Source of the DNA: an uncultured Opitutales bacterium
GTDB taxonomy: Bacteria; Verrucomicrobiota; Verrucomicrobiia; Opitutales; UBA9783
NCBI GenBank assembly: GCA_964508215.1
Contig: CAZDSI010000011.1
Coordinates: 1 to 33,149 of the forward strand
Length of the DNA stretch: 33,149 bases
Reading direction: 5' to 3'
Numbering within the stretch: position 1 is the first letter of the stretch; each line of letters starts with the position of its first letter. The notes below the pieces were generated by a model. That model did not search any database. It was not told where the DNA came from and worked only from the letters and a program-made list of their open reading frames with translations. Positions 13,825 to 26,780 of this stretch are shown one piece after another. A program made the position numbers and the translations under genes.

Positions 13825-15363
13825 ATGAATAATAGTCCCTCTCAACCAGCATTCTCAAAATTACGAGCGATCTTTTTTCCAATTCATCGCTATGAATTGA
13901 AAAAGGTATTACCGATGAGTATGATATTCTTTTTCATACTTTTTAATTACACCTGCTTGCGGAATATCAAAGATTCGTTAGTGGTTACCAGTACGGGAGC
14001 GGAAGCGCTTTCTTTCTTAAAATTGTTTTGTGTAACACCTTCGGCGATCGTATTTATGCTGCTTTACGCAAAAGCCAGCAATATTTTCAGTAACGAAAAA
14101 TTGTTTTATGCGACCTTATCGCCATTTATTTTGTTTTTTGGTTTGTTTGCCTTCGTCATTTATCCTCATAGAGAAGTCTTACATCCTGCGGCCGAAACCA
14201 TTGCTTTGTGGCAAGGAAAATGGCCTTCACTTTACTGGCCATTTGCCGTTTTTGGAGTTTGGAGTTATGCGATTTTTTACGTTTTAGCCGAATTGTGGGG
14301 TAGCGCTATCTTGTCGCTTTCGTTCTGGCAGTTCGCCAATCAGGTTACACATACGGCCGAAGCAAAACGCGTTTACGCATTTTTCGGTTTTGTGGCTCAA
14401 TTTTCTTTAATTGTTTCGGGTGTTCTCGGTGATCGTTTTTCCAATATTCGTGAAAAGGTTGGCCCAGGAGTTGATCCATGGCAAATTTCGCTTAATTGGT
14501 TAATGGGTATGGTTGTTGTGTTTGGTATTGCAACAATGTTAATTTATAAGTGGATTTACAAATACGTATTAACCGATAAGCGCTTTTACGACAAACCCGA
14601 ATTGCCCGGTGTTAAAAAGGGGAAGAAAAAGGCTGGCTTAATCGAAAGTTTAAAGACGATCTGTACTTCGCCGTATCTTGGTTTGATTGCAATGCTTGTT
14701 ATTGCTTACGGTATCACCGTTAACGTTGTTGAAGGTTTGTGGAAAAGTCAGTTGAAGCTTCGCTACCACAATGAAAACGACTATAACACCTTTATGAGCC
14801 AATTTACAATTTATACCGGTATTGCTTCGATGATAATGTTATTAGTCGGTGGTAATATTTTACGCCTATGTTGTTGGGTTGTTGCCGCAATGTTTACGCC
14901 GGTTGTATTATTTCTCGGTGGAAGCCTTTTCTTTACCTTCGTGTTGTATAGGTCACAGTTGATCGATACATTGACAAAATGGGGCACAAATCCGATTGCT
15001 TTGGCTGTACTTTTAGGTGCTGCTATGGTAATGATTGCGAAGGCAACAAAATATGCTTTGTTTGACCTAACAAAGGAAATGGCTTATATTCCGCTCGACG
15101 AAGAAATGAAGGTAAAAGGTAAGGCTGTTGTGGACGTGGTCGGTGGACGTCTTGGAAAGTCTGGCGGTGCCTTTGTTCAGGTGACTTTGCTTTCGGTCAT
15201 CGGATCTCTGGTAGGACATAAGGTTACATATGACCAAATTGCTCCCTATGTGTTTGGCATTTTTATTGTTATTAGTATCTTGTGGATTTTATCGGTTAAA
15301 GCTCTTGGCAAAAAGGTTGAAGAAGCCAATAAGCTTGCCGGCGAAGTTACGAAAAACCAATAA
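13825..15363 (+). CDS. tlc1: ATP/ADP translocase (TLC/NTT nucleotide transporter)
   Basis: FFILFNYTCLRNIKDSLVV, SFLK, ELWGS, FWQFANQ, KYALFDLTKEMAYIPLD and GRLGKSGG are NTT family signatures. ATG at 13825 preferred to TTG at 13813. Confidence 0.97.
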   Translation: MNNSPSQPAFSKLRAIFFPIHRYELKKVLPMSMIFFFILFNYTCLRNIKDSLVVTSTGAEALSFLKLFCVTPSAIVFMLLYAKASNIFSNEKLFYATLSPFILFFGLFAFVIYPHREVLHPAAETIALWQGKWPSLYWPFAVFGVWSYAIFYVLAELWGSAILSLSFWQFANQVTHTAEAKRVYAFFGFVAQFSLIVSGVLGDRFSNIREKVGPGVDPWQISLNWLMGMVVVFGIATMLIYKWIYKYVLTDKRFYDKPELPGVKKGKKKAGLIESLKTICTSPYLGLIAMLVIAYGITVNVVEGLWKSQLKLRYHNENDYNTFMSQFTIYTGIASMIMLLVGGNILRLCCWVVAAMFTPVVLFLGGSLFFTFVLYRSQLIDTLTKWGTNPIALAVLLGAAMVMIAKATKYALFDLTKEMAYIPLDEEMKVKGKAVVDVVGGRLGKSGGAFVQVTLLSVIGSLVGHKVTYDQIAPYVFGIFIVISILWILSVKALGKKVEEANKLAGEVTKNQ

Positions 15364-15378
15364 CTCTTTTTTTAAACC

Positions 15379-15406
15379 AAAACCCGAGCAAAAGCTCGGG
15401 TTTTTT
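15379..15406 (+). terminator. Intrinsic terminator of the NTT gene
   Basis: AAAACCCGAGC-AAAA-GCTCGGGTTTT perfect stem with a T run, 15 nt after the stop; A-rich 5' flank suggests it could act in both directions. Confidence 0.9.
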
Positions 15407-15429
15407 GTTATTTATAAATATTTATTGAT

Positions 15430-15939
15430 ATGAAAAGGCACAGTAGTGTTCGAATTATTTTATTAAACTCTAAAAATGAACTTCTTTTAATGTGTGCCGA
15501 TGATCCCAAAACGACTACGCTAAAGGGAAAATACAATGGTCGATTTTGGTATACGGTCGGTGGTCAAATTGAGGATGGTGAATCTATCGAACAAGCAGCT
15601 TTACGCGAGATATATGAGGAAACCGGTATTAAAAGAGAAAAGGTTGTTCTTGGCCCAGTTGTTTGGTTTGGCGAGTTTGATTTGATTTTGTCGGGAATCG
15701 CGACCCGGCTCAAACAGGTATTTATTGTGGCGAGAACGGCTGAAAATAATTTTACATTAAAAAATTTAACCGCTGAAGAACAAGCTGTTGTGCAACGGCT
15801 CGATTGGTTTTCATTGCAGAGAATACAGACCAGTACGGAAGTGGTTTACCCAGTTTTATTGCCGAAATATTTGCCAGATGTTATTGCGGGAAATTACCCC
15901 GAAAAGCCGATAGAGATCGATTTGGGGAAACAACCGTAA
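15430..15939 (+). CDS. Nudix hydrolase 1
   Basis: Canonical Nudix box GQIEDGESIEQAALREIYEETGI. Confidence 0.92.
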   Translation: MKRHSSVRIILLNSKNELLLMCADDPKTTTLKGKYNGRFWYTVGGQIEDGESIEQAALREIYEETGIKREKVVLGPVVWFGEFDLILSGIATRLKQVFIVARTAENNFTLKNLTAEEQAVVQRLDWFSLQRIQTSTEVVYPVLLPKYLPDVIAGNYPEKPIEIDLGKQP

Positions 15940-24628: not shown

Positions 24629-24737
24629 TGCTTTTGGGTAACAGAAACTCTTGGGGCATGAAAGAAAATTTTTATGTTCAAAACAAGAAAGCCTCGCCAT
24701 GGTTTTGCGAGGCTTCATAACTTGTAATTTAAAATAT

Positions 24738-26057
24738 TTAGAAGCAGTAGCACATTCCTAATTCAACTCGATTATTTTTATCTCTACGTTCGATACCCTT
24801 ATAGGATATTTTCATATGTGATACTTCTAGTCCGACCCAGAAAGATTCCGTCCATAAATACTTTAAATTTGTAAAATAATTTTCATTTTTTTTGCGACTT
24901 GCCCCCGGTGGATTAGCCGTGTTGTAATTGTTTAAGTCGCTATCTTTTGTTGTATCGATGCCGTAGCCCAAATTCCATTCCCATTTTTTTACTGGAGTAA
25001 ACGTTAATTGTGCGAATCCACCCTGTGTGCGAATAGCCTTGCGTAGTGTGGTATTTACCCCTTGTCCGATGCCACCGTCGTACATGCTCAGATTTGCTCC
25101 TGTGAAAGCCGATAGTGTAAAGGCAACGTATTGAGTAACCGGTACATTCATTGCCGCGTTGATGCCCCATACCTTATAGCGTTCCGAAAGTGTACCGCTA
25201 CCGTTAAGCGCTACTTTTTCTCGGCCCAACACTCCTGAAAAGCTAAATTTACTTTCTTTTTCACAAAAAACTGGTGATAGATAGGCTAAATTATATTGAA
25301 GATGTGGCGTACCGCTATGCGAATGTTCGGGCCGCGATATAGCACTTTCAATTAAAAACGACCGTGATTTTTCAATTTCTATGGTTTTGCTTACTTTTGC
25401 TTGAAAATGGCGATTACCAATCACACCGCTTTGTGCTAGCCCGTTAAAGTTCAAGACTGCCGGGGTAATATTGCCAATAAGGTCGGCTGTTTGTCCAACG
25501 AGTATTCCACAGGTGTCATATTTACATTCAATATATCCATGACGTAATCGAGGCTTTAAACTGCCATGGCTAATTTCTGAATCGCCCCAAAAATCACCTT
25601 CAATGACGCCACCGGTTTGCCAACTGGAAATTTCGGGACCTGAGATTTTAACACCCAATCGTGTTGCCTTTACGGTGCCACTAAATTGCGAGGAATCGTC
25701 TGAATTACCGGACTGAGGAACGGGATAAGTAGGACCATCCTTATCGTTGGTTTGTTTAGAATCGTAGGAAGCTTGGCCATAAACGAAACCGTAAAGCTCC
25801 ATGTTTAGGTTAGCGAGTATGGGCTTTTTGGCATTGGGGAAAGTTTCTGCTAATTTTTTTTCTTCGGCTTGGGTAATGGATGTTGTATTTGATTCTGCTA
25901 AACGCTTTTCGAGATAATCAATGCGTTGCCGTAATTCGGCCAACTCTTTTTTTATTGTGGCATCATAGTCTGGTTCCGCGAAAGTATAATTTGTGAAATA
26001 CATTATACCCCATAACGCTATTACCATTAAAGCGTTTCGATTAATTGTGTCCCGCAT
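24738..26057 (-). CDS. DcaP-like outer-membrane porin with periplasmic coiled coil
   Basis: Signal region, coiled coil (ELAELRQRIDYLEKRL), YGFVYGQASYD, TRLG, IEGDF, RLRHGY, LVGQT and C-terminal Phe. Confidence 0.75.
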   Translation of the reverse strand: MRDTINRNALMVIALWGIMYFTNYTFAEPDYDATIKKELAELRQRIDYLEKRLAESNTTSITQAEEKKLAETFPNAKKPILANLNMELYGFVYGQASYDSKQTNDKDGPTYPVPQSGNSDDSSQFSGTVKATRLGVKISGPEISSWQTGGVIEGDFWGDSEISHGSLKPRLRHGYIECKYDTCGILVGQTADLIGNITPAVLNFNGLAQSGVIGNRHFQAKVSKTIEIEKSRSFLIESAISRPEHSHSGTPHLQYNLAYLSPVFCEKESKFSFSGVLGREKVALNGSGTLSERYKVWGINAAMNVPVTQYVAFTLSAFTGANLSMYDGGIGQGVNTTLRKAIRTQGGFAQLTFTPVKKWEWNLGYGIDTTKDSDLNNYNTANPPGASRKKNENYFTNLKYLWTESFWVGLEVSHMKISYKGIERRDKNNRVELGMCYCF

Positions 26058-26132
26058 GTTGCGTATCCTAAAGATAGGCTAATTTTCTGTCAAGACGACA
26101 GTAGCTTTTATGCCCAATAAAAGAGAAACGGG

Positions 26133-26780
26133 CTATTTCGAGATTTCAGTTTGGGATTCTTGTCCGGAAGGAGATGCTTCTATCGTAGCTTTTGATTCCG
26201 GTTGTGTATCTTTTAAAGCTTCCGGGTGCCTTTTCTGGAGGTAGTCGCGTAGTATTTCTGCGTGGTCAAATGCAAGCTCCGTCCAAGGGATTTCCGATAA
26301 TTTAACGACAAAAGCTTTTGCGGCATCGGTTCCGCCAATCGGAGCACCCTTAGCCTTGGCAATATGCACAATGTCGACAACATGGAATCGAGGATCTCTT
26401 TTGGGGTTTGAATAAGCCTGAAATTGTTCGATATCGTAAACACTTAAATTGATTTCTTCATACATTTCTCTTTTGAGTGTTTGTTTTAGATCTTCGCCAT
26501 ACTCAACCAGTCCGCCAGGCAAAGCTTTGCCCAGGGGCGGATTACAACGATCTATCAATATAATGCCCTGCATATTCCCCTTTTCATCAACTACTTCGAT
26601 AATACCCGATGTTGCTAAGATAGGAGCTCGATAAGCCTGCGACTTGCGATCAATGTCATCTTGTTTTTTTTGCAACTGTTCCTTTTGCAATAAAAAGTCA
26701 GCCATATGCTTTGTGGAATCTGCGCTGACAAATAAAAAGGGTATGATTATAAAGGATAAAAGAAAAAGAAATCGTTTCAT
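26133..26780 (-). CDS. Nudix hydrolase 5 with N-terminal signal peptide (ADP-ribose pyrophosphatase/NrtR-type catalytic domain)
   Basis: MKRFLFLLSFIIIPFLFVSA-DST signal; ALPGGLVEYGEDLKQTLKREMYEEINL; YSNPKRDPR and LAFDHAEIL motifs. Confidence 0.87.
   Translation of the reverse strand: MKRFLFLLSFIIIPFLFVSADSTKHMADFLLQKEQLQKKQDDIDRKSQAYRAPILATSGIIEVVDEKGNMQGIILIDRCNPPLGKALPGGLVEYGEDLKQTLKREMYEEINLSVYDIEQFQAYSNPKRDPRFHVVDIVHIAKAKGAPIGGTDAAKAFVVKLSEIPWTELAFDHAEILRDYLQKRHPEALKDTQPESKATIEASPSGQESQTEISK

Follow-up and report, generated by a model that had tools for sequence, protein, structure and literature searches.

The stretch analyzed here comprises the 33,149 nucleotides of contig CAZDSI010000011.1 (assembly GCA_964508215.1), from an uncultured Opitutales bacterium of the UBA9783 lineage, and is referred to below as the window. 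It encodes a TLC-family nucleotide transporter (NTT), followed by a neighborhood with five genes of the Nudix hydrolase superfamily (Nudix1 to Nudix5), a histidine phosphatase, a probable MazG-like all-alpha NTP pyrophosphohydrolase and a DcaP-like outer-membrane porin. An initial annotation had proposed a candidate nucleotide-harvesting region, and its inventory was upheld. Five genes with Nudix boxes were found within about 13 kb at the positions it had given, together with the NTT and the phosphatase; they lie on both strands, interrupted by mutS, bioB and an ltaE-like gene, and do not form a single operon. A LysM gene also intervenes, and bioB is split. As had been claimed, enzymes that cleave compounds of the nucleotide-diphosphate type are strongly over-represented in the region.

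Packing and transcription of the Nudix genes

Searching with a strict Nudix-box pattern (G-x5-E-x7-RE-x2-EE) returned exactly five boxes in the 33-kb window, all within 15.5-26.5 kb. Each of the five proteins matched Pfam NUDIX (PF00293) at 51-69 bits against a cut-off of 21.1, and the catalytic RE..EE residues were intact in 5/5; all five therefore combine the fold match with a box bearing the catalytic Glu and are members of the superfamily. Minor variants of the box occurred in Nudix2, which ends in G-Y, and in Nudix5, where Asn (N) replaces the last G of GX5EX7REUXEEXGU.

The five genes span 11.4 kb. In 1.43 Mb drawn from unrelated bacterial loci the same pattern occurred three times, a baseline of 0.027 per 13 kb; the 65 kb surrounding the NTT orthologues in relatives had no such box. 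The Poisson probability of at least five boxes was ~1e-10 at this baseline and 2e-4 at 0.5 per 13 kb, while a scan statistic gave <=1.3e-3 assuming a 1-Mb genome with 20 Nudix genes. The packing was far denser than chance, and the clustering is real.

Matches between pairs of the five proteins were confined to the box (<=34 bits), and their best PDB and NCBIfam matches differed from one protein to the next; on these likenesses, the genes were shown to belong to five different subfamilies. Three origins for the cluster were considered and rejected: a recent tandem duplication, as the paralogues are common only in the box; a recent horizontally transferred island, as G+C and GC3 of the Nudix genes match those of neighboring genes; and a defence island, as PADLOC gave only the generic Nudix model PDC-S07 (21-44 bits). 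The G+C content of the window was ~40% throughout.

Transcription of the region appears divided. Between the NTT gene and Nudix1 lies an intrinsic-terminator-like hairpin that had the longest stem and was the first-listed site in the terminator scan, and on such predicted features the NTT gene was shown to be a separate transcription unit. The Nudix genes are on both strands, and promoter-like sites precede Nudix5 and the porin gene, one each. Only two gene pairs overlap, phosphatase/Nudix2 by 34 nt, at the 3' end of the phosphatase gene, and LysM/Nudix4 by 4 nt, and both pairs look co-transcribed.

The transporter and the enzymes without export signals

The NTT matched the TLC profile (PF03219) over positions 5-490 of 491 (601 bits against a cut-off of 21) and TIGR00769 at 549 bits against 387, which places it in the TLC/NTT family. 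It scored 490 bits against PDB 9j3n, 'ADP,ATP carrier protein 1', and 407 bits against chloroplast NTT1, and in likeness it appears closest to the ATP/ADP exchangers. Such exchangers supply energy and not a net gain of nucleotides. The database copy of the protein (P0001) begins at the second Met, position 13825.

None of the five Nudix proteins reached an NCBIfam equivalog cut-off, so that the subfamily assignment by hidden Markov models proposed in the initial annotation was achieved only as likeness: MutT-like for Nudix3 and ADP-ribose-type for Nudix4 and Nudix5, with no subfamily assigned to Nudix1 or Nudix2. Nudix1 has a canonical box (GQIEDGESIEQAALREIYEETGI), NCBIfam matches that all fall far below cut-off, and PDB matches of <=31 bits. 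The box of Nudix2 is GHVEVNEDARSALHRELIEEIGY, and its best PDB match was 2pqv (35 bits). Nudix3 scored 48.7 bits against a cut-off of 148 and 41.4 against 97.9 with the MutT equivalog models, and 37.5 bits against PDB 1mut. Nudix4 resembled the ADP-ribose pyrophosphatases of the PDB over its full length (45-52 bits) and fell below the equivalog cut-offs of that group (NudF/NudE), with 58 bits against 169 for NudE and 17.6 against 79.6 for TIGR00052; it is best called 'ADPRase-like', not a proven subfamily member. Its sequence has a proline 15 residues past the box, the place that a proline has in E. coli NudF.

The phosphatase carries the RHG (FIRHGQT) and SHGG (VSHGG) motifs of histidine phosphatase branch 1, to which it belongs. 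It reached no specific equivalog (97 bits against 163 for the cobC model) and matched PhoE and alpha-ribazole phosphatases of the PDB at 45-55 bits. When tried as a synteny anchor it was set aside: besides one 99% twin it had no homologue above 48% identity, and two homologue loci were without a Nudix neighbor. Its closest homologues (~44% identity) sit among genes for ankyrin-repeat and IBR/RING E3-ligase-like proteins (L087, 4582-5112 and 10686-15050; one further locus), which are typical of intracellular bacteria of protists.

The MazG-like gene was present where it had been reported, and its assignment is borderline: it scored 21.7 bits against 22 for Pfam MazG, 21.1 against 21.3 for PRA-PH and 17.4 against 27 for MazG-like, all on residues 67-127. 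The protein carries an EExx(D/E) helix signature, had no sequence match in the PDB, and gave a low-confidence single-sequence AlphaFold (AF2) model (pLDDT 50). From residue 31 it is 40% identical to the N-terminal half of a 263-aa MazG-like::HIT fusion encoded in a contig of unknown taxon (L090, 17120-17911, +), 6.7 kb from an exported Nudix5-like gene. The fusion passes the PRA-PH cut-off (22.6 against 21.3), and this HIT-joined homologue supports the assignment in the window.

No export signal was found in the sequences of Nudix1 to Nudix4, the phosphatase or the MazG-like protein, and all six look cytoplasmic.

Table 1. Features of the Nudix-rich neighborhood and its flanks (positions in the window)
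Feature	Position	Strand	Evidence or remark
NTT (TLC-family nucleotide transporter)	13825-15363	+	Pfam TLC 601 bits, TIGR00769 549 bits
Intrinsic-terminator-like hairpin, between NTT and Nudix1	15379-15404	+	11-bp stem, 6 GC pairs, 4-nt loop, T run
Nudix1, 169 aa	15430-15939	+	Pfam NUDIX 61 bits
PLP-dependent threonine-aldolase-like (ltaE-like), bystander	16010-17044	-	Pfam Beta_elim_lyase 162 bits
bioB, split in two frames	17230-18164	-	Pfam: radical SAM 17502-18164, BATS 17230-17505
Nudix2, 163 aa	18267-18758	-	Pfam NUDIX 56 bits
Histidine phosphatase, branch 1 (PhoE/CobC-like)	18725-19297	-	Pfam His_Phos_1 136 bits
Nudix3, 144 aa, MutT/NUDX1-like	19345-19779	+	Pfam NUDIX 69 bits
Nudix4, 202 aa, ADP-ribose/ADP-sugar pyrophosphatase-like	19849-20457	-	Full-length NudE match, 58 bits
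LysM-domain protein, upstream partner of Nudix4	20454-20963	-	Pfam LysM 48 bits
mutS, bystander	21284-23827	+	All five MutS domains present
MazG-like all-alpha NTP pyrophosphohydrolase (probable)	24230-24718; from likely start Met31, 24230-24628	-	Borderline Pfam
DcaP-like outer-membrane porin	24738-26057	-	Pfam DcaP 37.9 bits, cut-off 27
Nudix5, 215 aa, predicted Sec-exported, ADP-ribose-pyrophosphatase-like	26133-26780	-	Pfam NUDIX and signal peptide
Promoter-like site upstream of Nudix5 first ATG	26799-26827	-	TTGTTA-17-TACAAT
704-aa protein, divergent from Nudix5	26881-28995	+	Without Pfam or NCBIfam match
birA, intact	29143-29769		Outside the range of the initial annotation

Among the bystanders, the ltaE-like gene scored below the cut-offs of the NCBIfam ltaE and GntG models. 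Near 17503-17506 the bioB junction (..AATATTTGATTCCTATGGAGGGAACTCCA..) reads VPINI*, then LIPMEGTPL in the next frame, and one added T in the run ..AATATTTGATT.. would restore VPINILIPMEGTPL; the gene is either a pseudogene, in a genome undergoing decay, or intact but misassembled at a homopolymer. Elsewhere in the window, comEC (8244-9793, -) is probably split: the ORF with the Competence domain (8244-9383) and a 168-aa ORF upstream of it (9287-9793) share 97 nt in different frames, and the latter has a weak match (13 bits) to DUF4131, the usual ComEC N-terminal domain. Three ORFs of 433, 333 and 137 aa (5431-7848, + and 986-1399, +) matched nothing in Pfam or NCBIfam, and the related loci that were fetched contained no homologue of them.

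Nudix5, its relatives and the source lineage

Translated from its first ATG (26780), Nudix5 starts with MKRFLFLLSFIIIPFLFVSA, followed by DS, and this N-terminus is a predicted signal peptide. The promoter-like site ends 18 nt ahead of that ATG; together with the homologues it supports the long, signal-peptide-bearing start. In the public version of the protein (P0241, 190 aa) the start was called from Met26, leaving out the signal peptide (segment 26705-26780). The closest homologues, at 40-57% identity, have a signal peptide or an N-terminal anchor in almost all cases, followed by a linker, a conserved AYRxPxLATSxIIE motif and an intact box, in which REx2EE is near-invariant across the clade. 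Nudix5 scored 114 bits against PDB 2yyh, and its best NCBIfam matches were NrtR and NadM-Nudix, whose Nudix domains are of an ADP-ribose-binding type. More distant homologues are cytoplasmic, many with zinc ribbons, Macro or nucleotidyltransferase-like domains as read from their N-terminal sequences, and the Macro and nucleotidyltransferase-like fusions point to ADP-ribose/NAD chemistry. Nudix5 appears to be one member of a clade of ADP-ribose-pyrophosphatase-like, Sec-exported proteins conserved among these symbionts.

The architectures within the family were varied (L095 9458-10390, L162, L101, P0242, P0248 and P0251; domain labels read from sequences, not scored with Pfam) and included Macro::Nudix, nucleotidyltransferase-like::Nudix, a tandem double exported Nudix of ~400 aa, and an exported Nudix that continues at its C-terminus into a long helical extension, TPR-like in appearance.

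Exported members of the clade were encoded in 6/80 metagenome loci. In two of them (L088, 9935-11263; L089, 3048-4373) the gene after the exported Nudix5-like one codes for an exported protein of the DUF2608 type that bears DxD and DD motifs like those of HAD enzymes, and in a third (L092, 9911-11907) a His_Phos_1 protein with a signal-like N-terminus is encoded 700 bp from the exported Nudix5-like gene. In these three taxonomically unassigned loci (33-39% GC), the arrangement would pair a pyrophosphatase with a phosphatase. No description of DUF2608 was found in the literature, and a limited search found none of exported bacterial Nudix enzymes.

The DcaP-like porin that adjoins Nudix5 was retained from the initial annotation in part: its score is above cut-off, but the match to DcaP (PF19577) is limited to the N-terminal half, covering residues 27-223 of 439 and profile positions 10-201 of 410. 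The protein has a signal peptide and an N-terminal coiled coil, and no homologue of it was found in any related locus examined.

The initial annotation had further suggested comparing synteny in related genomes, and no conserved linkage was found in three NTT and four Nudix5 orthologue loci, all from distant relatives. The NTT orthologues (76-78% identity) lie in three different neighborhoods with 0 Nudix genes and no accessory gene conserved beside the NTT. Around the Nudix5 orthologues on four verrucomicrobial contigs (L168-L171) there was no second Nudix, porin or MazG-like gene nearby; the neighbors were upp and a DNA glycosylase gene in one, gmk and type III secretion system (T3SS) genes in another, a CNNM transporter gene in a third and dapA in the fourth. 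Neither an NTT-Nudix module nor a module of Nudix genes with one another, the porin or the MazG-like gene was recovered in these tests. The five-Nudix packing was absent from the relatives examined, all of them distant, and the grouping is lineage-specific. The only conserved gene pairing found was that of Nudix5 with its divergent neighbor: the N-terminal 280 aa of the 704-aa protein matched the product of a 269-aa gene divergent from the Nudix5 orthologue in L169 (6123-6932, -; 88 bits, E 6e-24). A single-sequence AlphaFold model of this N-terminal domain was poor (pLDDT 38).

The nearest NTT homologues (53-81% identity) were from metagenome-assembled genomes (MAGs) named Puniceicoccales or Opitutales; Cerasicoccus maritimus was the top MutS match (55% identity) among the matches listed; and the Nudix5 homologues included a protein of a Puniceicoccales MAG and one of 'Verrucomicrobia bacterium GWC2_42_7'. 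Judged by these protein likenesses, the source lineage is Verrucomicrobiota (Opitutales/Puniceicoccales), not Chlamydiae. The organism is an NTT-bearing and probably host-dependent bacterium, as the initial annotation had implied, but not one of the Chlamydiae or Rickettsiales whose NTTs it had cited. The Opitutales families LL51, UBA9783 and CG1-02-43-26 have been described as putative protist endosymbionts with genomes <1.5 Mb that carry NTTs and have lost amino-acid pathways (PMC11257099; bioRxiv 10.1101/2025.05.29.656868), and NTTs in Opitutales/Puniceicoccales have been noted from MAGs only (PMC11257099). A protist endosymbiont is a likely source of the genome.

Contigs of relatives carried T3SS genes (CesT, secretin, SseC and FHIPEP) near the NTT or Nudix5 orthologue, which fits a host-associated lifestyle in Verrucomicrobiota. 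The set, consisting of CesT chaperones, a secretin, an SseC-like translocator and FHIPEP/SctV, lies <=10 kb from one or the other orthologue (L081 1375-1821; L086 1-2260 and 13245-14546; L169 2885-5813).

Interpretation and comparison with known systems

We favor, at a probability of roughly 0.55, the reading that the region is a lineage-specific neighborhood of separately transcribed small-molecule hydrolases and not one machine, in which Nudix5 would act outside the cytoplasm. Under this reading, Nudix1 to Nudix4, the phosphatase and the MazG-like protein would stay in the cytoplasm and keep the cell's internal, nucleotide-derived pools clean or recycle them. Damaged or non-canonical NTPs could be removed by Nudix3 and the MazG-like protein, Nudix4 could split ADP-ribose or ADP-sugars into AMP and a sugar phosphate, and the phosphatase, apparently co-transcribed with Nudix2, could strip a phosphate that Nudix2 leaves behind. 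Where a cell lives on imported nucleotides, activities of this kind may be of greater importance. Nudix5 would be exported via Sec to the periplasm or beyond, where it would hydrolyze ADP-ribose- or NAD-type dinucleotides admitted by an outer-membrane porin such as the adjoining DcaP-like one, and the smaller products would then be taken up. The two roles that the initial annotation had offered fared differently. Converting host dinucleotides into importable units would need the enzymes outside the cytoplasm, and since Nudix5 alone among them has a signal peptide and the remaining six look cytoplasmic, that role fits weakly and is plausible only for Nudix5 with the porin. Sanitizing of imported pools came closer, as the cytoplasmic enzymes fit internal sanitizing or recycling better than harvesting.

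Several points weigh against this favored reading. If the genes act independently, their strong clustering is left without a cause. No porin homologue stood beside any Nudix5 relative examined, and the pairing of Nudix5 with the porin may be accidental. The signal peptide was called by eye and with a hydrophobicity heuristic, not with a trained predictor. The relatives compared are distant (ffh 58% identical), with 7-21 kb covered per related locus, and the roles of the five Nudix proteins are inferred, as none of them reached an NCBIfam equivalog cut-off.

The same observations bear on the other explanations. Nucleotide-diphosphate hydrolases are packed to an extreme degree next to an NTT and a porin, one Nudix protein is predicted to be exported and adjoins that porin, and two of the four Nudix5 orthologues lie beside the nucleotide-salvage genes upp and gmk. 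These features would suit an integrated harvesting module, in which host dinucleotides and cofactors would enter through the porin, be cut into transportable units by the Nudix, MazG-like and phosphatase enzymes and be imported in that form by the NTT, with selection keeping all the genes together. We regard such a module as improbable: 4/5 Nudix proteins, the phosphatase and the MazG-like protein are without export signals, a terminator stands between the NTT gene and Nudix1, and no NTT-Nudix, Nudix-Nudix or Nudix5-porin linkage was seen in seven related loci. Moreover, NTTs are not known to carry the monophosphates that Nudix enzymes produce, their substrates being nucleoside tri- and diphosphates or NAD, which also counts against it. 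A meaningless juxtaposition, by which deletions and rearrangements during genome reduction brought unrelated housekeeping Nudix genes together in a region tolerating non-essential, decaying genes, would agree with the unrelated subfamilies, the native base composition, the highly rearranged gene order among relatives and the signs of decay in the window (bioB frameshifted, comEC probably split). Against it, five Nudix genes would fall within 11.4 kb by random placement with a probability of <=1e-3 under generous assumptions, two of the five belong to gene pairs that overlap and look co-transcribed, and all five catalytic motifs (5/5) are intact; we consider accident a rather unlikely explanation, if one to be taken seriously.

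Some of the Nudix proteins might be effectors that reach the host through a type III or type II secretion system and act there on ADP-ribose signaling, mRNA caps or inositol pyrophosphates; this we consider very improbable. The T3SS parts (CesT, secretin, SseC, FHIPEP) near the NTT or Nudix5 orthologue of relatives, the phosphatase homologues in contigs rich in ankyrin and IBR/RING genes, and the weak matches (24-30 bits) of Nudix2 and Nudix3 to diphosphoinositol polyphosphate phosphohydrolases and decapping enzymes are consistent with such effectors; however, many other Nudix subfamilies gave matches at least as good, no secretion signal was recognizable with the tools applied, and the window itself yielded no T3SS gene.

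A further proposal we put forward with considerable doubt. Nudix5 may stand for a clade of Nudix pyrophosphatases, so far undescribed, that endosymbiotic Verrucomicrobia and certain other bacteria export through Sec, degrading host ADP-ribose- or NAD-type dinucleotides outside the cytoplasm and often accompanied by exported HAD-like (DUF2608) or histidine phosphatases. The five-Nudix cluster may then have been favored by selection in a symbiont that depends on its NTT and turns over dinucleotides heavily. Literature searches brought up no account of Nudix clusters in symbionts that carry NTTs. If the cluster does reflect selection, nucleotide-parasitic symbionts beyond Chlamydiae and Rickettsiales would invest heavily in cleaning and recycling nucleotide-derived metabolites; if it is an accident of rearrangement, a striking local enrichment in one genome would be no evidence of a functional module.

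Among known systems, the NTT/Tlc proteins of Chlamydiae, Rickettsiales and plastids (PF03219; PDB 9j3n, 9j3j) share with the NTT of the window the full-length TLC match and, in a putatively endosymbiotic lineage, its setting. The present, predicted transporter differs in belonging to Verrucomicrobiota and in having no conserved accessory neighbors. Two proteins recall the ADP-ribose pyrophosphatases (NudF/Ndx4/NUDT5): Nudix4 gives a full-length alignment with enzymes of the NudE/NudF type, while Nudix5 finds its best matches in NadM-Nudix/NrtR-type domains and PDB 2yyh and has Macro-fused relatives. Unlike the established pyrophosphatases, both fall below curated cut-offs, and Nudix5 has a signal peptide and Asn for the last Gly of the box.

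MutT and MazG are house-cleaning NTP pyrophosphatases, and within the window Nudix3 most resembles MutT/NUDX1, and the MazG-like protein shows the EExx(D/E) helix together with clan matches that are borderline; these likenesses stay below equivalog and gathering cut-offs, from which an 8-oxo-dGTP specificity is not inferable. Intracellular bacteria have Nudix ApnA/RNA pyrophosphohydrolases (RppH, InvA of Rickettsia, IalA of Bartonella and CT771 of Chlamydia), which are likewise Nudix enzymes kept in reduced, host-associated genomes. The proteins of the window differ from them, scoring 16-30 bits with RppH models against cut-offs of 116-259 and displaying no ApnA-type signature that we could see.

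The closest parallel in logic is the uptake of NAD (V-factor) by Haemophilus influenzae, which involves the OmpP2 porin, the periplasmic NadN pyrophosphatase, the HAD acid phosphatase e(P4) and PnuC. A porin and the predicted exported Nudix5 in the window, and an exported HAD-like or histidine phosphatase encoded beside the Nudix5-like gene in L088, L089 and L092, would follow the same scheme. The differences are that NadN is not a Nudix enzyme, that no PnuC was seen in the window, that the phosphatase of the window is without a signal peptide, and that the link to the porin is not conserved. If the exported Nudix5 clade degrades dinucleotides, it would be a Nudix-based counterpart of Haemophilus NadN/e(P4) scavenging and would bring a new type of enzyme to the small set of known routes for breaking down dinucleotide cofactors ahead of their uptake by bacteria.

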